A stretch of 64,000 nucleotides of DNA. Source: an uncultured Chloroflexia bacterium. GTDB taxonomy: Bacteria > Chloroflexota > Anaerolineae > JAAYZQ01. Below the pieces are notes generated by a model that worked only from the letters and a program-made list of their open reading frames with translations, did not search any database and was not told the DNA's origin. This document shows positions 21,207 to 39,011 of this stretch, one piece after another. Numbering within the stretch: the first letter of the stretch is position 1; each line of letters starts with the position of its first letter. The position numbers were made by a program, and so were the translations under genes. The stretch lies in the NCBI GenBank assembly GCA_963700285.1, contig CAVOXA010000001.1, forward strand, positions 1,728,001 to 1,792,000, given 5' to 3'.

Positions 21207-21406
21207 CAACGATCCTTTCCTTGGCTTTTTTGCCTGCTCTTTCTGATGTGTTACGCTCCTCCAACCTCCGGCCAAACCTTCTTCGTCACTGGCGGTCTGG
21301 CCCGGTGAAACCGCCCTACCCTACATGATGGCCTATCGCCGTCAGTTTTGCATCTGCATGTCATTTCTGCGGCTGGTCGTACCCCTCTCCAGACCTTCCC
21401 TGCTCC

Positions 21407-22430
21407 TCAGACGTCCCCTAGCATCGCCCGCACCTTTGCTTCGGCCTGGGCGATGGGTTGGGCCATCGGACTCTCTTCGGCTGTCATCGCCTGGGCCTGG
21501 GCCAATGCTGGATAGCCCGCTTCCCGCTCAGCCTGGAACTGGCGGGCAAAGGCGCCGCTCTGGATCTCCGCCAGCGTCTCGCTGAACCGCGTACCGATGT
21601 CAGACATCATTAGTTGCATCGTGCGCAGGAACCCGCCGTACAGGGCTGTTGGGCCATGACTGTCAGAGGCGCGGTAGAACCCCTTCTCGCGAAATGCCTG
21701 CCACACCGTCTCCATCTCGCCCGACATGTACATCTCCATGACCATCGCCTCGGGCGGGATGCCGGCCTCGACACCCAGGGTAAAAGCGCTCATCACCGCC
21801 ACCCCGATCGCCGCGCCCAGCGTCTGCTCGACAAACAGATCCAGGTCTGCCTCCCGGCGGGCATCAAGCTCAAGCGCGCCAGCGTACAGTACGCCCACAG
21901 CGCCCGCAATGCCGAGCAGCCGGTCCCAGGCCCTACCACTGGCATCCTGCTCCACCGAGACGTAGGCAAAGAAGCCCTGCCGGTTCAAGAATCGCTGCCG
22001 GGCGTGCTCCCCACCCATGCGCGGGGCCAACAGCAGAACGTCCACCCCTGGCGGGTGGTTGGACCAAGCCGTAGGCCAGGTTGTAGCCCGAGGCAAAGAT
22101 GACGGCCGAGCCTGGCCTGAGGTTCGGCCCCAGGTCGGATGCAAATACCTCCGGGATCACCTCGTCTGGCAGCAGGACCAGCACGATGTCCGAGGCGGCC
22201 ACGGCCTCGCCGATCTCCAGGACGGCAAAGCCATCGCTGCGGGCCTGGTCGGCGTATTCGTCGGATATGTTGCCTACCACCAGAGGTTCTACACCCGAAT
22301 CGCGCAGGTTCAGGGCAAGGGCGCTGCCCAGGTTACCATACCCCACCACGCCTACCCGCTCCCCCTCCAGGGCACGGGGGTTGGCGTCGGCGGCCGAAAA
22401 GAAACGGTACAGGTTGTCGTTCGATGTCAC
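21407..22430 (-). CDS. ilvC: Ketol-acid reductoisomerase (IlvC)-like protein, divergent; one frameshift near 22060
   Basis: GVVGYGNLG..ALNLRDSG Rossmann fold, LLPDE, FASGY (ORF 21933..22430), joined to DVLLLAPRM..DLFVEQ..E.IQSG.FA (ORF 21407..22144). Confidence 0.8.
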
Positions 22431-23849
22431 AGTGATGATTCTCCTTCCTGGTGATCAGTGCTGGATCGCTGATTCTGCCTGGTCGCGGGTCCCTCCACCA
22501 CCCGCTGGTACAGGCCCGAGCGGTTCCAGCGGTAGGCGATGGCCGCCATCAGCGGGTTCTCCGTCTCGCGCCAGGTGTTCCATGCCCGCCGGGCCGCGAC
22601 AGCTCGCGAGCCCACGGCCTGCGTCGCCCACACCAGGCCCTCTTCTAGTTGCTCTGACGTCATGTCGCGGGGCCGAAAGACGGCCGTCCGCAGGTCGTAG
22701 CGGCCATAGTCCTCCGGAAAGTCGGTGTAGAGTAGTCGATCTTCCTGGGCCAACCGGTCGTACAGGTCGGTGCCCGGATAGGGTGTCAGCAATCCAAAAT
22801 GGGCCACGTCCATCCCTGATTTTAGCACAAACTCTGCTGTTCGCTCAAAAATATCGGGTCCGTCGCCGTCGTTGCCAAAGATGAAGGTGCCTGACGAGGC
22901 CAGGCCGTGATCGTGCAGTTTGGCGATCCTGTCCCTGTACCCGTTCACGCCAACCTTCAGATTCACCCCCTTGCGCATCAGGCGTAGGCTCTCTTCGCTG
23001 ACCGACTCGAAGCCGATCAGCACCGTCATGCAACCACTGCCTCTCAGCGCCGCCAGTACCTGGTGATCGTCGGCGATGTCCAGTGAGGCCTGAACCGCGT
23101 AGGGCCTGTCCTGGCCCTGTTCCGCGATGCCCTCAAAGAGGGACAGCGCCCACTCGCGGTCGGTAAAGACGTTCTCGTCGGTGAAGAGGAGCGGCCGCTT
23201 GTTGCCAACGCCCGCCATCTCGGCCAATACCTCTTCGGGCGGGCGCTTGCGGTAGTGCCCGCCGTCCAGCTTCCACAGCGTACAAAACTCGCAGCGGTAG
23301 CGACAGCCCCGCGAAGCCAGAGATCAGTTGCAGAAAGTAGCGGTGTTGGTATAGATCTCGCCGTGGCCAGGGCAGGTCACGCAGAGGGATCGCGGCCCCG
23401 TTGTAGCGCCGTTTCAGCTTCCCGGCCTCGAAATCGCGGATCAGAGACGGCCAATTCCGTTCCGCCTCTCCCTGAAAGACGACGTCCACATACTTGGCCG
23501 CTTCGTCGGGTCGCAGGGTGGCATGGACCCCGCCCATCACGACTGGTACTCCCCGATCCCGATAGCCCTGGGCAAGGGCATAGGCCTGTGGAGCAGTGAT
23601 GCTCAGCGACGTAATGCCTACCAGGTCTGGCCTGCCCCAAGCCCCGTCGGCGGGGACATCCTCGCCTACCTCGTCTACGATCCGCACTTGCCAATGGGGC
23701 GGCGTCAGCGCGGCGACGTAGGCCAGGCCCAGGGGCTCCATGGTCGCCATGCCGCCAGCGTTGCGCAGCCGCTGGCCGTTGGCCTTCATGGCTGGGTTGA
23801 CGAGTAGCAGCCTTGGTCCCACGGTTCGCCTTTCGCCCCTGAGCGTCAC
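22427..23849 (-). CDS. B12-binding domain radical SAM protein; one frameshift near 23320
   Basis: EPLGLAYVAA, VVMGGVHAT, GEAE (cobalamin-binding domain); ASRGCRYRCEFC after removing one base; IGFES, TPYPGT. Confidence 0.9.
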
Positions 23850-23851
23850 GC

Positions 23852-26800
23852 CTAAATCACATCTTTCTGTTTCTGGAACAGCAGCGTCACCCCAAAGAAC
23901 AGGAGGCTGAGGACTCCCAGCGCCAGCCAGGAGGCTTTGATATCTGCCTCAAAGGCCGTCTTGTATCGCGTAAAAATCTCGTCGATCTTTTCCTCGGCTC
24001 CGCGGACAGCTCCCTCCCGTGTTCCCTGCCACTCCTGACGGTCTGTGATGTACCGCTCCATCTCGTTGTTCTGCCAATCCTCCATCTGATCCTGTCTTCT
24101 CTCTCCATCTTTTTTGCCAGCAGCTTCGCGGGTTGCCTGCCATCCCTCCAGTTTTCTCTGGTCCTTTGGCTTGGGAGGCGGCGTGGAGCTTGGCAGGGGC
24201 GTCGGCGTGGGCGGCTTTGCCGGCTCTAGTGCGGCGAGGGCTTTACGGGCTTCAGCATCATAGAGATCTGGATTCTGGATCCCGGGGAAATAGCACAGCC
24301 TGAACAACTGCTCGCCCATACACTGGCATTGCCGCCGATCCTTGTCATCTTGATCCCAGTTCTTTCCGTTCCTCCTTGGGCAGGTCCCAGCAGGGGTCTT
24401 CCACGACGTTCTCGCCGATGCCCGTGATGCGCACCAGTCCCTCAAAGGCCCACCGGGTGGACGTAGCGGCGCTGATAGAGTCTCCGCCGGGGATGAGGTC
24501 GCGGGGCAGCAGCGCGCCGGCAAACAGGAACTGGGGCACCAGCACGATCACGACCAGAAAGAGGGCGATGTTCTGGTTGGGCGACGCCGCCGAAATGAGC
24601 AACCCGAGCATATAGCCCGACAGGGTGCACAGAAAGATGGTGATGTACATGGCCGAGTAGCCCCACTCGCCGCCGTAGAACTGGGGATCGACAAAGACCT
24701 TCTTGGCCAGGACAAAGATGACCGACTGGTAGGCGGCCAGGATGACGCCCACCCACACCTTGGACAGGATGTAGGGCATCAGCTTGAGCACGACGGTCCG
24801 CTCCCGCCGGTAGATGTCGACCTCTTTGACGATCTCGCGCACCGAGCTGAGGGCGCCGGTCAGGATGCCGATGAGGCCCATCATGAACAGCATGGTGATG
24901 ATCTGCGCTGCGTCGCCGTTCACCGACGTCGAACAGCTCCTTGCCCCAGATAAAGTCCATCAGGCCGATCAGGGGCGCCACGGCCAGCATCAGGGCCAGG
25001 CCCACCTTGTCCTGGGCGATGATGCGCAGGTTGCGGGCCGAGAGGATCAGGAACTGCCGGAAGGCCGATACCTGCCGCTTCTGCGGGCGTCTGGCGGGCC
25101 GGCAGTGGACGTGGGCGTGCGCTGCTGTCTCCTTCAAGTTCTTGCAGGCGGTCGACGACGTACTCCTGGTACTGGGCGGAGCGGCGGAAGCGCTCGCCCC
25201 ACTCCTCGGGCGTGCCGCGCGTTTCCATCAGCCGGTAGATGTCGTCGAACTCGACCTGTTCCTTGTAGCGGCGCTCCTCGGCCGTCCGGTATTGCTCAAA
25301 GTACTCCAGCGCCTCGTTGGGCGGGCCAAAGATAGGCCAGGTAGCCGCCCTTGGCCAGGAACACCACCTGGTCGCACATCATCACGTTCTTGGTGGCGTG
25401 GGTGACCAGGATGACCGTGCGCCCGCCATCGGCCAGGTCGCGCAGCAGCTCCATCATCTCGGTCTCGGTGCCGGGGTCCAGGCCCGAGGTGGCCTCGTCC
25501 AGGAAAAACAGGCCCGGCTTGGTGAGCAGCTCGACGCCCATGGACACCCGCTTGCGCTGCCCGCCACTCAGGGCGCGTGATGAGGTTGTTTCGCTGCGCG
25601 CTCCAGCCCCAGCTCGTCGAGCACCTCCATGATGCGCCGGTGCCGTTCCTCCTTGGAGGTGTCGGCCGGCATCCGCAGTTGAGCCGCATAGTCCAGCGCG
25701 CTGTAGACCGTCAGCTCGCGGTGGATGATGTCTTCTTGGGGCACGTAGCCCATCTCGCTGCGGTACTCGTCCATGTGGGTGTACAGGTTCTGGCCGTTGA
25801 CCAGCACCCGTGACTTGGGGCCGTTGGCCGGATTGAAGCCGGTCAGGGCGTTCATCAGCGTCGACTTGCCGGCGCCGCTGGCCCCCACCAGGGCCACGAA
25901 CTCTTTGGGATAGATCGAGATTGAGACGCTCTTCAGGATGTTGACCGTCTTGCGAGTACCACTTTTCGATGCGCAGGGCATCCAGCCGGATGTTGCCTGC
26001 CTCGTCGAAATGGCGTGATGCCGTCCTCCTGAAAGACCAGCCGGAACGATGCGATGTCGGATCTCGTCGCCTTCCTGGATCCAGGCCTCCTTCTTCACCC
26101 GTTTGCCGTTGACAAAGGTCCCGTTGTCGCTGTTCAGGTCCCGCAGCCGGAAGCGTGCGCCAAACTGCTCGATGACGGCGTGATAGCGGGACACGCGGGG
26201 ATGTTGCAGCGCAACGACGTTGCTGCTGTGCCGTCCGATGGTGATGCGCCGGCTTCCGCCTGGGCAGGTCTGCGCATGTCCAGGTACTGGGTCTTGGGGT
26301 CTTCGATGCCGCTTTTCGGCCTCGCTCCGGCAGAAAGCCGATGTGCGCCCGGTACTGGAGGGCGATGCGTCTGTCCAATGTACAGCACGTCGCCGTCGGC
26401 CAGGACATGCTGGGCCACCCGCTGACCCTGGTAGGTCAGGCCGTTTGTGCTGCCCAGATCGACGATGCGGTAGGTGTTTCCCAGTCGCTCCAGCCGTGCG
26501 TGATGGCCCGACACCAGCGGGTCGTTGAGCTGTACGTCGTTGTCCGACCCACGCCCCACCGTCACGACTCCTTTGTCCAGGGGGTATTTCTCCACACGGC
26601 CGCTCACATAGACGGCCAGTCCTGGCGCCGGGTCTGATGAGATCTGCACTTTATCGCCAAGTCGTGGCGGAACATGATCCTTTGCCTGGGGCGATTGGAT
26701 CTGGAAGGTGAACTCGTCGATCCGGACCGCGTCGCCGGGGCGCAGGGGGGTCGCTTTCCTAGGTGGGAGCCGCTGGCCATTGAGGTAGGTACCATTGCTG

Positions 26801-27000
26801 GAGTTCAGATCCTCCACGAGCCAGCCATCACGGCCCCAGACAAACTGGGCGTGTCTGCCTGAGACGTTGGGGTCCTCCAGGACAACGTCGTTCTGCCTGC
26901 CCCTTCCCAGCCTCAAAATCGATTGGTAGATGGGCAGCTCATCCTGGCCGCCCCTGGCAATCTGGACTTGTAGGATACCATGAAGCTGTTGGGCACTCAT
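23852..27000 (-). CDS. FHA-FHA-FHA - ABC ATPase - ABC2 permease fusion (Rv1747-like exporter); multiple frameshifts
   Basis: Three FHA motifs (SGRHA..SSNGT; SGHHA..STNG; SRYHA..SDNGT); Walker A GASGAGKST, LSGGQRKR, FFLDEATSGLD, VTH; permease motifs REIVKE..IYRRER and PQFLFAG. Confidence 0.88.
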
Positions 27001-27053: not shown

Positions 27054-28688
27054 TCATTTCTGTTGGTCGGACGCCTGTCTCAGGGCTACGATGAACTCCC
27101 GCGTAGTGGCATATCGCCGCCCGGGATCAGGTCGCAGGGTCTTCAGGACGACATGGTCCAACGCAGGCGCGATGCTCGGCTTTAGATGGCTCGGCGGGGC
27201 GGGAGTCTCCAGGCCAAAAGCAGGTGGAAGCTGGGCCGTCAGCATCTCATAGAGGCAGACGCCCAGTCCATACTGGTCGCTTTGCAGCATGGCCGCTCCG
27301 TTGAACTGCTCGTAGGCCATGTAGCGCGGGGTGCCGATGCGCGTGCGCGCCACCTGGCTCTCGCCTAGCATGGCGACGATGCCAAAGTCCGCTACCTTGG
27401 CCCCTCCTGTCTGGTCCAACAGGATGTTGGCTGGCTTGATGTCCCGATGGATGATCCCTTTTCGGTGGGCATGGTCCAGCGCCTCGGCTATCTGGAGGGC
27501 GATGGCCGTGGCTTGCCTGGGCTTCATGGGCCCCCAGTGGCTCAGGCCCTGTGCCAATGTGGGCCCTCTGACCAGTTCCATGGCCAGATAGTAGCATCCC
27601 TGCGATTCTCCTGCGTCAAAGACCGTCACGATATTCGGGTGCGAAAGCTGGGCCAGGATGCGTCCCTCGCGCCGGAATCGCTCCACAAAATCGGCTGTGG
27701 CAGTCAACTCGGGGGCCAGCAGCTTCAAGGCGACTTCCCGGTGCAACGCTGTGTGGCGTGCCCGATAGACCACGGCCATTCCCCCATGCCCAAGTTCCTC
27801 CTGGATCAGGTACCGGTCAAGCACAGTGCCGGGGGCCGGGCACCTGGCCGGTGGTGTCGGTTGCTGGCGCCTGGTATGCACCGCGGGCTGGCGTTGTTTG
27901 GCCCTCGTCTCCTGTCTTCCACCGTCACCCAGGTATTGGCGGCGCTGCGGCTTCCGGCTGGTGCGTTTGCCCGCTACTTTCCATAACAATGCGCCTATCG
28001 CGGCGACCAATGCTATCGTCAGCAGGAATATGGCCCCATAGGAGACAAGGTCTGCCCCTGGTACGGCGGGCTTTTCTGCCCGGACCGTCAAGATATATTC
28101 CGTCTCAGCATCGTCGCCCTCGTACGATGTAAAGTACCAACTTATGCGGTTCTTTGCTTCCTTCTCTGTGCGGGCCCGTGTGGTCTGTAGGTCAGTGTAC
28201 TCTGTGATCCTCCCGGGCATGGTCACCCGGTATAGCATGGGCTGGCCCTCGACCAGCCATAGCTGCTGGGGGCTTATTCGGGTCTGGATGGTGTAAGTGC
28301 TCTTCAAGGTTTCTTCTTCGTACCAGCCGTCGATTTGCAGGCCTCCTGCGCTCCCCACAAAGCATGTGATCTGGCCCGGGATTTCGCTAAAGCTGCGAAA
28401 ATCGAACACCGCCTGGATCCCGGTATACTGCTCGTCTTCGTAGGGCAAGGTCCGGGCACCGCACGCTTCGACTTTGCGCCGAGCCTCTTCCAGGTCTTGT
28501 TCCTCCGCTGCGGCTTCTTGCGACCCTTCTTCTGCCCTGGCTGATGCGAAGAGAAAGACGTTGCGCCCACTGCCATCGTCCCATACTTCGGTGGTGACCT
28601 GCTTGATGCCACAGCCCAGCACAAAAAGGGCCAACCCCATGACCAATAGGAGGAGTGCTTGCGCCAGGCGGTCCTTAAGGTTGCTCAC
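27054..28688 (-). CDS. Ser/Thr kinase 4 with inverted topology: lipoprotein signal - extracellular LppM/DUF3153-like domain - TM - C-terminal kinase
   Basis: GTG start at 28688 overlaps the upstream stop (GTGA); lipobox VLG-C; TM GAIFLLTIALVAAIGALLW; LGHGGMA, VALK, HRDIKPAN, ADFGI, GTPRYMAYEQ. Confidence 0.9.
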   Translation of the reverse strand: MSNLKDRLAQALLLLVMGLALFVLGCGIKQVTTEVWDDGSGRNVFLFASARAEEGSQEAAAEEQDLEEARRKVEACGARTLPYEDEQYTGIQAVFDFRSFSEIPGQITCFVGSAGGLQIDGWYEEETLKSTYTIQTRISPQQLWLVEGQPMLYRVTMPGRITEYTDLQTTRARTEKEAKNRISWYFTSYEGDDAETEYILTVRAEKPAVPGADLVSYGAIFLLTIALVAAIGALLWKVAGKRTSRKPQRRQYLGDGGRQETRAKQRQPAVHTRRQQPTPPARCPAPGTVLDRYLIQEELGHGGMAVVYRARHTALHREVALKLLAPELTATADFVERFRREGRILAQLSHPNIVTVFDAGESQGCYYLAMELVRGPTLAQGLSHWGPMKPRQATAIALQIAEALDHAHRKGIIHRDIKPANILLDQTGGAKVADFGIVAMLGESQVARTRIGTPRYMAYEQFNGAAMLQSDQYGLGVCLYEMLTAQLPPAFGLETPAPPSHLKPSIAPALDHVVLKTLRPDPGRRYATTREFIVALRQASDQQK

Positions 28689-29452
28689 AGGGATGGCTCC
28701 AGGCCCTGTGCGCTGCGCCATACCTGCAAGGCAAATAGAACACCTGCGGTACCCAGGAGCGCCAGATCCAGACCAAAAAACAGCGCCAGCCCCTGAGAGG
28801 TTGCATAGTCTCCCCGTAGCAAGCCGATAGCCGCGCGGCTGGCGCTGTAGATCGAGACATAGGTCAGTACCAGAAAACCAGGATAAGGCTTGTTCTTTCG
28901 CACTTTCCACAAGAAGGCAAACAAAGTCAACCCGACGGTGCTGTAGAGGAGCTGGGTGGGGTAGCGCACGGCCCAGCTACCATCTATGTCGGGCAGGAAC
29001 GCCCCGAGCATGCCGCTGGTCTCCCGGCCGTAGCAACAGCCATTCAAAAAGCAGCCCCAGCGCATGATCCCCTCCGCCATGGCCGCTGCTGGCACGAGCA
29101 GGTCGAAAAAGTGCCAGGTGTTCAGACCCGCACGCCGGCCGTAGGCGTAGGTCCACAACAACAGGGCTACGATCGCGCCGCAGGCGGCTTCGCCCTCCCC
29201 TTGCCAGAAGGGCAGGACCCGTCCCAGATCGCCACCCTTCTCCTGCCAATGCAAAAGCACGTAACTCAGGCGTCCCCCAAGCAGGGCGCTCACAATGGCC
29301 CCAGCGCAGAAGCCATACACGGCTCCTGGCCGCAGTCCAGCCTCTCTCCAGCCCCGGCGCAAGAGTAGATAGCCAGCGATCATCCCCAGCAATAGGAAGA
29401 TGCTGTAGGAGCGGATGGCGTATGGACCGACGTGAAACAAAACGGGATGCAT
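28685..29452 (-). CDS. lgt: Prolipoprotein diacylglyceryl transferase (Lgt)-like protein, divergent
   Basis: MHPVLF..G..IRSY, LLGGRL, RWGCFLNGCCYG, YPTQL, R....LRGD; ~7 TM; ATG 29452. Confidence 0.85.
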   Translation of the reverse strand: MHPVLFHVGPYAIRSYSIFLLLGMIAGYLLLRRGWREAGLRPGAVYGFCAGAIVSALLGGRLSYVLLHWQEKGGDLGRVLPFWQGEGEAACGAIVALLLWTYAYGRRAGLNTWHFFDLLVPAAAMAEGIMRWGCFLNGCCYGRETSGMLGAFLPDIDGSWAVRYPTQLLYSTVGLTLFAFLWKVRKNKPYPGFLVLTYVSIYSASRAAIGLLRGDYATSQGLALFFGLDLALLGTAGVLFALQVWRSAQGLEPSL

Positions 29453-37001: not shown

Positions 37002-38684
37002 CTATGGACCCACATCTAGCCTCAGGACATTGTCTCCGATGGCGATCATGGCCCCGGTCCTCAATGGGATCTCGCCATAGACCCTCTGGCTGTCTACCCA
37101 GGTGCCATTCATGGACATGTCCTCCAACCAGTAGCTGCTGCCCCGTAGTACGATTCTTGCATGCTGGCGAGAAATCGCTGGATTCGCTGGGCCAAGGTTC
37201 ATCCGCCCAAGGACCAGGGTCTGATTCGAAAGGGGGATCTGTTGTCTTTCTCGTGGGCCCTGCACGATGGTAAGTCGTGCCTTTTGTGATCCCTTGGGCG
37301 GCACCGAAAAGTCTCCAAAGACACTATGCCCAAGGGCCTTGCCCATCTCTTTGGCCGAGCGATAGCGTTTGCTCCTGTCCTTTTCGAGTGCTCGCATCGC
37401 GATGTGTTCCATCTGCCTGGATACTTGGGCATTCGGGTTCCGCCTCCGGATCGGTTCAGGCCGTTCTTGGAGGTGCTGGCGAATCACTTCCATGGCAGCC
37501 TTGACGTGGTTATCGGTGCGCGGCCGACGGAAGGGAACGCTGCCCGCGAGCATTTCATACAGCACAATGCCCAGGGAGTAAACATCGCTGGCAGGCCACA
37601 CCGGCTCGCCCCGAGCCTGCTCCGGCGAGATGTACTCAGGAGTGCCCACAATCCTATCCCGCGTAACCGTGGAGGCTGAAGTCAGTTTGGCGATACCAAA
37701 GTCCAGAACCTTAACCTTCCAGTCGCCCAGGACCAGGACGTTCTCAGGTTTGATGTCGCGGTGGACTATATCGTTCTCATGGGCAAAGGCCAGCGCTCTG
37801 CACACTTGATCCACGATTCTCAAGATCTGTGGTTCTGGCAATGGTTGTTGCATGATCTTGCGCAGAGACGCGGCATCGACGTACTCCATAACAAGATACA
37901 GTCGGTTGTCCTGACTCTGGCCAAACTTGTGGACATACACAATGTTCGGATGGCCTCTCAGACGAGGCCCGATGCTGTTGCCCTCTTGGACAAATTTGTT
38001 CACCAGATATGGGTTGGTTTCCTGAAGGATCTTGATGGCCACCGTCTCGCCATTTGGGTCGCGTGCCTTGAATACCTCGGACATTCCGCCTCGACCAATC
38101 AGGTTCTCCAGGTAGTAGCCATCAAAGAGTTCTCCCATGACATGTGGCTCTACGGTACGGATAGGTGAGGGAGGAGGTGAAGGCAATGATTTGCCGATGG
38201 TACCAAAGACGAACTGTGATTGCCAGATCTGAATGCGATCGCCGGGTACCAGGACATGGCGCCCTACCCGTTCATCGTTGACCCAAGTTCCATTGGCACT
38301 ATCGCGATCGTAGAGGACGTGCTGCCCGTGCTCTTTCACGATGACTGCGTGGTAGCGCGAGACCATCAGTTCGTCCTCTAGCACAATGCTATTGTCGGGG
38401 TGCCGCCCAATCGTTAATCCCTGGGAGGGGATAGAAAAGCGCTGTTGAGCCAAAGGACCCTGTGTGACAGCCAGCTCGACCGGACTTGCTTCCTGAACTG
38501 CCTGGCCTTGGTTGCTACAGGTAGAACACACGGTGAAACCATTAGGAAGTCGAGCGCCGCACATGGGGCAGCGGTTTGCCCGCTTCTCTCGGGCAAAGAT
38601 CACACTTGCGGCCACAATTGTGGCTAGGAGTGTTGCCGCGGCGAAAATGAACATGACTGTGGATGGGCTGAGCCGTGCCTCCAT
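37002..38684 (-). CDS. Ser/Thr kinase 5 (TM - zinc ribbon - FHA - kinase - FHA)
   Basis: N-terminal TM; CPMCG..CSTC; FHA IGRHPDN..SRYHA..SANGT; IGRGGMS, HRDIKPEN, DFGIA, GTPEYISPEQ; second FHA LGR..ISRQHA..SMNGT. Confidence 0.93.
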   Translation of the reverse strand: MEARLSPSTVMFIFAAATLLATIVAASVIFAREKRANRCPMCGARLPNGFTVCSTCSNQGQAVQEASPVELAVTQGPLAQQRFSIPSQGLTIGRHPDNSIVLEDELMVSRYHAVIVKEHGQHVLYDRDSANGTWVNDERVGRHVLVPGDRIQIWQSQFVFGTIGKSLPSPPPSPIRTVEPHVMGELFDGYYLENLIGRGGMSEVFKARDPNGETVAIKILQETNPYLVNKFVQEGNSIGPRLRGHPNIVYVHKFGQSQDNRLYLVMEYVDAASLRKIMQQPLPEPQILRIVDQVCRALAFAHENDIVHRDIKPENVLVLGDWKVKVLDFGIAKLTSASTVTRDRIVGTPEYISPEQARGEPVWPASDVYSLGIVLYEMLAGSVPFRRPRTDNHVKAAMEVIRQHLQERPEPIRRRNPNAQVSRQMEHIAMRALEKDRSKRYRSAKEMGKALGHSVFGDFSVPPKGSQKARLTIVQGPRERQQIPLSNQTLVLGRMNLGPANPAISRQHARIVLRGSSYWLEDMSMNGTWVDSQRVYGEIPLRTGAMIAIGDNVLRLDVGP

Positions 38685-39011
38685 GGGCTTGAAGCCGGAC
38701 CCTTTCAAAGCTGCCATCGACATGCCGAGCCTGAGAACCGCGAGGTTGCGTCCAGTGGGCTTGTTCCTTGAGCACATGCTGCGCGGTTGGCAAGCCGGTG
38801 GCAGGTAGGTGATTACTGACAGTCGATGTGAAACAAGGGCGCCCTTGCCCTAAGCAGCAGTTGGGGACGTTTTGCAGGCATGGACGCCTTTTTTCAAAAA
38901 GGTGGGTGCCTCCCCTCCTTCTCCCGAGAACTGCACATACTCGGGCCGCATCATTCGCTCGTCATCAGGGCGATACGTCAAGAAGAAAAGTGCTCTTGTT
39001 GAGTGATGAAG

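Follow-up and report, generated by a model that had tools for sequence, protein, structure and literature searches.

Lgt is regarded as the general enzyme for all the lipoproteins of a bacterium. Extra copies of its gene are frequent and move along with lipoproteins on mobile elements (PMC8689077; PMC13251419), and the role of the many divergent Lgt paralogs, including those of the Anaerolineales, is an open question (PMC13251419). The present work concerns a stretch of 64,000 nucleotides (hereafter the window) from an uncultured Chloroflexia bacterium of the Anaerolineae (GenBank assembly GCA_963700285.1, contig CAVOXA010000001.1, positions 1,728,001 to 1,792,000 of the forward strand), in which a divergent Lgt paralog is encoded directly upstream of a receptor kinase that begins with a lipobox. 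The parts are known (Lgt, LppM, Hanks kinase) and their coupling is real; in the reading that we prefer, and to which we give a probability of about one half, the paralog would be a private Lgt that lipidates the atypical lipobox (Leu at position -2) of the receptor kinase.

Several described systems resemble this locus in part. With the Lgt of E. coli (PDB 5AZB/5AZC; PF01790), whose residue numbers are used below unless the paralog is named, the paralog shares homology over its full length and the residues Y26, R143, G154, Y235, R239, and R246; the canonical enzyme serves all lipoproteins, whereas the paralog is tied to, or fused with, one partner gene. The kinase protein has its predicted fold and its lipobox-domain-helix layout in common with LppM (Rv2171; PDB 2NC8; PF21946), but the identity is 12-13%, the ectodomain scores below the Pfam cut-off, and the protein continues into a cytoplasmic kinase and has what appears to be a private Lgt. 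Like the kinases of the PknB/Stk1/PrkC type (NF033483), it joins a homologous kinase domain to a single membrane helix and has FHA and PP2C-type genes nearby; unlike them, it has the ectodomain first, no PASTA domain, a lipobox leader, and AYE for APE. A sensor domain N-terminal to a Hanks kinase is already known from the cyanobacterial CHASE2-Ser/Thr kinases (PMC2176072), and it is the lipoprotein version of this arrangement that is unusual; the CHASE2 sensor has another fold, and neither a lipobox nor a dedicated Lgt is mentioned for these kinases in the available text of that source. Skillet-1 Lipocone has been put forward as the dedicated lipidating enzyme of downstream GS-lipobox proteins, whose genes share its operon and whose lipobox is atypical (bioRxiv 10.1101/2025.01.14.632903); this system is itself a prediction and differs in its unrelated enzyme fold, its Ser acceptor, and its lack of a kinase. 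A second lgt carried by a plasmid or another mobile element (lgt with lit2; M. smegmatis MSMEG_5408; S. coelicolor) is likewise an extra copy, in some cases N146C, that accompanies lipoprotein genes; the available accounts describe for such copies no single-substrate coupling, fusion, or kinase. An earlier, sequence-only reading of the window knew of no description of such a pairing, and full-text literature searches, which mostly left subscription papers uncovered, likewise returned no account of a lipobox receptor kinase with its own Lgt or of an Lgt fused to a lipoprotein.

The gene pair holds on re-analysis, and none of the three findings that would have spoken against the sequence-only reading (an unconserved lipobox Cys, no other lgt in the genome, adjacency confined to this genome) was made. 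The Lgt-like gene (255 aa; 28685..29452, minus strand) runs from an ATG at 29452 to a TGA ending at 28685, and the gene for the lipobox-LppM-like-transmembrane-Hanks kinase protein (544 aa; 27054..28688, minus strand) starts with a GTG at 28688. As had been claimed from the sequence, this GTG overlaps the TGA of the Lgt-like gene, the two sharing the four nucleotides GTGA (28685..28688, minus strand, read from the sequence), an arrangement that makes translational coupling likely. A mechanical list of open reading frames (ORFs) places the start of the kinase further upstream, also at a GTG (618 aa); the GTG at 28688 is preferred because homologs begin at the same place, with Cys at 26 in most of them. 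Close homologs that bear NCBI names are Anaerolineae, which points to this class for the window. No sigma-70-like promoter was found.

New, and the strongest evidence for the coupling, are proteins in which an Lgt-like domain is fused to the lipobox and the ectodomain in a single chain. A profile search of 1.84 billion representatives gave 26 matches, including P0149 (822 aa), with the order Lgt, signal-like helix, VLG-C, ectodomain, helix, kinase, and P0147 (497 aa), with the same order and no kinase. With the ectodomain profile, a search among proteins of 369-2000 aa (7,998 candidates scored) gave 13 proteins, of which seven combine ectodomain and kinase, two Lgt, ectodomain, and kinase, and four Lgt and ectodomain. 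The fusions amount to six clusters, two of which include the kinase. An artefact is ruled out because the 24 sequences of these six clusters come from four source collections (NCBI, JGI, ENA, and Logan). L-G-C-G-Y follows the internal hydrophobic helix in all 24, and since the C-terminus of Lgt is cytoplasmic (PMC8048626), the tethered helix would cross the membrane like a normal signal peptide. A fusion query of the ESM Atlas gave no usable match and weighs neither way. The kinase-less fusions P0147, P0168, P0169, and P0170 have at their C-terminus a Cys followed by a hydrophobic stretch and basic residues, as do some stand-alone LppM-like proteins (L007, L009, P0140, P0155), and this tail may be a C-terminal sorting signal; its Cys was rejected as the substrate, being present in kinase-less fusions and not conserved before the membrane helix of the kinase.

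Quick trees, with support from the Shimodaira-Hasegawa-like approximate likelihood ratio test (SH-aLRT) only, place the adjacent and fused kinase domains, together with the distant P0138, on one branch (SH-aLRT 99) apart from the 19 other kinases of the genome. The fused Lgts form one branch and the adjacent Lgts another, and both group with a sister set (L011-type) with a support of 84 in a 61-row tree and 99 in a 40-row tree. One member of this set stands, at L011:8188-10756, after a small lipoprotein-like ORF (FLTN-C; weak DUF3221 match) and a neprosin-domain gene, and tandem pairs of Cys-type Lgt paralogs were seen on two metagenome contigs (L010:9717-11411 and L012:2056-3691).

The two genes also recur together. 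The ectodomain is common to eight other proteins at 50-61% identity, seven with a kinase and one a fragment, and this family is mirrored on the Lgt side by ten Lgts that are 55-72% identical to the paralog (next match, 41%), the 11 forming one tight branch (SH-aLRT 99). Adjacency of lgt and kinase, which the sequence-only reading had proposed to look for in other genomes, was found as same-contig pairs on five other contigs, as deduced from accessions or contig size and not from contig DNA: in two pairs the accession numbers follow one another directly (MBN1659354/5 and MBN1657678/9; contigs of 41,983 and 3,652 bp), and three are matched only by equally sized longest contigs (8,002, 4,068, and 13,777 bp). 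A kinase was thus matched for five of the ten other Lgt clusters, the unmatched ones lying mostly on short contigs. Pairwise identities of Lgt and kinase rank together over six pairs (Spearman 0.86), which is no independent test because these pairs are kin.

In the relatives searched, the two genes are absent together. The ectodomain was not found in 60 relatives (0/60), nor the clade Lgt in 22 other genomes of the family (best score 107 bits vs. 431), many of these genomes being incomplete. In the related genome G012, synteny extends over the flanking FHA genes, and in place of the pair stands an unrelated gene (L117:6641-7552), presumably an NAD+ synthetase, which makes this a point of the cluster where the gene content varies; the cluster of G014 is likewise without the pair. 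Searches of 401 genomes of the class and 401 of the phylum returned only distant stand-alone LppM-like proteins; the class sample was drawn twice with large overlap, and one search missed a genome (G118) that another found, which makes these searches non-exhaustive. None of six stand-alone LppM-like loci checked had an Lgt in its flanks. Pattern scans of contigs from genomes and metagenomes gave no relative of the ectodomain, and the Lgt pattern scan gave, among the matches listed, only distant relatives at <=40% identity; a plasmid search gave no match. What emerges is a rare module whose two genes behave as a unit.

The Lgt-like protein belongs to the Lgt family without being a standard member of it: PF01790 matches at 141.7 bits (cut-off 24.9), the TIGR00544 equivalog reaches 95.7 bits, below its cut-off of 118.9, and the clade profile is homologous over its full length to E. 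coli Lgt (E 1.1e-13). It bears a Cys-type signature, RWGCFLNGCCYG. Six residues are essential in E. coli Lgt, namely Y26, H103, R143, N146, G154, and R239 (PMC13251419), and four of them are kept here as Y16 (Y26), R131 (R143), G142 (G154), and R206 (R239), along with the equivalents of R73, D129, Y235, and R246; E151 is replaced. The arginine of the R.G.F.NG motif, said in the sequence-only reading to be kept, is this R131, and the two substitutions named with it, AACGA for SFHGG and YPTQLLY for HPSQLYE, are present, Cys91 of AACGA being aligned with His103. That His103 is replaced thus stands; that it is a universal requirement does not, as the canonical Lgt of the same genome has Tyr there and, among the ten clade members covering the site, eight have Trp, one Gly, and this copy Cys. 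Indeed, position 103 is Tyr, Trp, or Phe in other phyla (Tyr/Trp in Firmicutes and Actinobacteria), and naturally occurring Lgts include some with Trp at 103 and, among distant ones, some with Cys at 146 (PMC13251419). The loss of His103 is therefore no proof of inactivity, most relatives carrying Trp there like actinobacterial Lgt. Cys at 146 was found in 107 of 109 other Lgt homologs examined, and all 11 clade members, like the fusions, have the paralog's C134, C139, and C140 unchanged.

The paralog is not the only Lgt of its genome, which has three PF01790 genes. One is canonical (234 bits; Y103, R143, N146, R239, and E243), so the copy beside the kinase is an extra one. The paralog keeps the lipid-holding arginines, and its changes sit around His103, the proposed lipobox-binding region of Lgt (PMC4728403). 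Together with the Leu -2 lipobox, this pattern of residues would fit an enzyme retuned to one substrate.

The kinase leader (predicted lipoprotein signal peptide, residues 1-25, and lipobox Cys26 at 28613-28611; 28611..28688, minus strand; from motif and conservation) reads MSNLKDRLAQALLLLVMGLALFVLG-C26, with K5 and R7 in its basic part and residues 8-25 hydrophobic. The lipobox that had been proposed at the N-terminus is there, the leader ending in FVLG-C26; its assignment to the Sec/signal peptidase II (Sec/SPII) class is based on motif and conservation. The Cys is kept in nine of nine sequences, and F-[VI]-L-G-C is equally invariant (9/9). The V-L-G-C of the kinase does not match the consensus lipobox [LVI][ASTVI][GAS]C, to which 96 of 139 heuristically predicted lipoproteins of the genome conform; Leu at -2 is found in 14 of these 139, the kinase included, and in one of 20 stand-alone LppM-like proteins. 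Lipobox variants outside the consensus are known (PMC8048626).

The ectodomain that follows (residues 26-206; 28071..28613, minus strand) has the LppM fold, as judged from an AlphaFold2 model and a fold match. It is, at about 181-190 aa, somewhat shorter than the ~200 aa first ascribed to it. Built from 36 sequences, the model has a predicted local distance difference test score (pLDDT) of 93.9, the full-length kinase model being poor in this region (63.7). Foldseek matched it to LppM 2NC8 (E 6.8e-8), and VIA, run against 48,161 chains, ranked 2NC8 as the only match with Z >= 8 (Z 12.1, root-mean-square deviation 3.3, 149 aligned residues; next best Z 7.3). At the level of sequence the likeness is faint: PF21946 (LppM) scores 20.1-23.1 bits on the kinase, below its cut-off of 27, with weak matches in eight of eight members scanned (E up to 1, best 1.2e-5), and a PDB sequence search with the ectodomain profile gave chance matches only. 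Cys76 and Cys109 are conserved and possibly form a disulfide. LppM itself consists of a signal peptide, a putative lipobox, a domain, and a C-terminal helix (PMC5217060) and binds phosphatidylinositol mannosides (PMC6151718); on the model, the kinase would be an LppM-like protein extended by a cytoplasmic kinase. Since the ectodomain has both the predicted fold and the layout of LppM, its double anchoring is inherited and already known; the sequence-only reading was correct in placing a lipobox at one end of the ectodomain and a membrane helix at the other.

The single transmembrane helix (residues 218-236; 27981..28037, minus strand; hydropathy and charge), put at 214-241 by the full-length model, has a basic C-terminal side, with seven K/R against one D/E in the next 20 residues. 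Beyond it, after a linker, lies the cytoplasmic Hanks Ser/Thr kinase domain (27069..27821, minus strand; Pkinase match and motifs), matched by the Pkinase profile at residues 295-488 (E 1.6e-46), so that the order of ectodomain, membrane helix, and C-terminal kinase is, as had been noted, opposite to that of PknB-like kinases. Its motifs are intact (Gly loop, VALK, alphaC Glu, HRDIKPAN, and DFG); in 15 of 15 sequences listed, the Gly loop, Lys, alphaC Glu, HRD..N, DFG, and subdomain VIII Glu are kept, and APE reads AYE, SHE, or PPE. The AYE reported for this kinase falls at residues 458-460 (27309-27317) and recurs in 10 of 11 adjacent-type kinases, with SHE in the other. NF033483 (PknB/Stk1) scores 282.7 bits on the kinase part against a family cut-off of 450, and no PASTA domain was matched. 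A heuristic scan turned up 20 Hanks kinases in the genome, and in none of the others is the kinase domain preceded by both a lipobox and a membrane helix; this uniqueness argues against a chance arrangement.

That the Lgt-like protein serves the kinase as a dedicated partner, whether by lipidating or by chaperoning it, finds support in the conserved co-location of the two genes, in their congruent divergence and joint absence, and in the single-chain fusions, evidence that is compatible with lipidation as well as with mere binding. What is observed comprises the anatomy of the kinase, its fold match, the fusions, and the coupling of the genes; from these we infer the following steps. The paralog would transfer diacylglyceryl to Cys26 by means of a lipid site in which Arg143, Arg239, and Arg246 are kept, its remodelled peptide site in the His103 region being suited to a lipobox with Leu at -2. 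LspA, whose gene is present in the genome, would remove the leader and, in the fused forms, would thereby free the receptor from its enzyme. The ectodomain would then be pinned to the membrane at both ends, and the membrane-pinned LppM-like domain may bind an envelope lipid or glycolipid; binding would drive the kinase to phosphorylate itself and to signal to the FHA proteins and PP2C-type phosphatases encoded around it.

Several points weigh against lipidation by a private enzyme. Of the six residues that E. coli Lgt cannot do without, two are changed (H103 to Cys91, N146 to Cys134), G142 and E243 have become Met and Gly, and position 103 is Cys in this copy and not Trp; low activity is presumed for the second Lgt of M. 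smegmatis, which is N146C (PMC13251419). In all six fused cluster representatives, R239 is replaced by Tyr and H103 by Pro, and exclusive sisterhood of the adjacent and fused Lgts is neither shown nor rejected (approximately unbiased test, p-AU 0.337). Leu at -2 does not by itself require a private enzyme, as 13 other predicted lipoproteins carry it in a genome with three Lgt genes, and its constancy may reflect common descent. Because the fused copies lack Arg239, the main rival makes the paralog a co-receptor or chaperone in the membrane, non-catalytic or very slow, whose cleft would hold the signal helix and lipobox of the kinase, possibly uncleaved, in a lasting complex that gates the kinase, e.g., by sensing membrane lipids. 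Fusion in a 1:1 ratio is more in keeping with a stable partner than with an enzyme that could turn over once, and the fused domains without R239 and H103, the availability of a canonical Lgt in the genome, and the divergence in step of Lgt and kinase also speak for such a role. Against this, the adjacent form keeps R143, R239, R246, Y26, Y235, and D129 in all clade members covering these sites, whereas the third Lgt of the genome has lost R143 and R239, and not even the fusions depart from the acceptor Cys (24/24); we consider a non-catalytic partner somewhat unlikely.

The invariance of C134, C139, and C140 could also be taken to mean that the paralog modifies Cys26 by another chemistry or from another donor, with a lipid other than phosphatidylglycerol or with acyl transfer through these cysteines, and another acyl substrate or mechanism has indeed been suggested for Anaerolineales Lgts without R143 and R239 (PMC13251419). 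Cys at 146 is, however, so widespread among the homologs as to be a general trait of the subtype, and a stabilising disulfide has been proposed for it (PMC13251419), which leaves altered chemistry improbable. Two lgt copies occur in about 1,300 genomes and plasmid lgt genes travel with lipoproteins (PMC13251419), and several Lgt paralogs are carried by Anaerolineae; the copy beside the kinase might accordingly be a spare one that a cassette carries for dosage, without any particular tie to the kinase, the work being left to the housekeeping enzyme. Such a loose pairing is hard to square with single-chain fusions, joint absence, and a link retained across a kinase clade with adjacent and fused forms (SH-aLRT 99 against the 19 other genome kinases), and we hold it to be very improbable.

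Lipidation by a private Lgt, the reading preferred here, can be set beside other accessory Lgts. Run on the 401 genomes of the class, an accessory-Lgt profile gave 12 new top-scoring loci, nine of which have a co-directional neighbour with a lipobox-like Cys, compared with one of eight lower-scoring control Lgt loci; at one further locus a neighbour of the same family is cut by the contig end, and two loci have none. The neighbours form two families of exported proteins, unrelated to LppM and without Pfam matches. The accessory Lgts of this kind (L155-L166, L120, L121, L123) make up a separate branch (SH-aLRT 100) in which R143 and R239 are kept and H103 is replaced, mostly by a hydrophobic residue; their neighbours mostly have a lipobox-like Cys and all have a YLPL-like C-terminal motif. 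Two of the 13 partner lipoboxes listed, which are not independent of one another, match the consensus, against 96 of 139 in the genome. The supplementary text of PMC13251419, in its available part, lists Anaerolinea thermophila with three lgt copies and contains no occurrence of the word kinase. In a bolder version, which we regard as unlikely and speculative, an Lgt-derived membrane domain, fused or co-translated, would grip the lipobox helix of the kinase, which would be switched by its lipidation state or by the supply of membrane lipid; the single-chain forms would be self-lipidating receptor kinases, and the locus one case of an Anaerolineae-wide rule by which accessory Lgts each serve a private atypical lipoprotein. 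The third Lgt of the genome (L003; G000:C14:643718-644443) is of a type that adjoins a large gene, which we take to be a mannose-1-phosphate guanylyltransferase/phosphomannomutase, here and in six of eight control loci.

The pair lies within a large co-directional cluster (1200-38800 of the window) with Hanks kinases, FHA proteins, a vWA-FHA protein, and what we assume to be PP2C-like phosphatases, partly syntenic in G012 and G014. A second kinase at 37002-38777 has one N-terminal membrane helix followed by a zinc ribbon, FHA, kinase, and FHA, and is without ectodomain or lipobox. Three adjoining genes at 21400-27000 are frameshift-split here and intact in G012, probably through assembly errors or decay; one is an FHA-FHA-ABC transporter, and the other two are presumably a radical SAM protein and a ketol-acid reductoisomerase. 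Despite these split neighbours, the possibility that the two-gene form is a fusion broken by sequence error was ruled out, because separate Lgt and kinase proteins of equal lengths come from independent sources.

The locus supplies a candidate substrate for one divergent Lgt paralog. The E. coli Lgt structures are without a lipobox peptide (PMC4728403), and the natural single-chain Lgt-substrate fusions could yield a structure of Lgt with such a peptide. It further suggests that the LppM fold can serve in signalling, and it widens the range of bacterial receptor kinases by an architecture of lipoprotein type.

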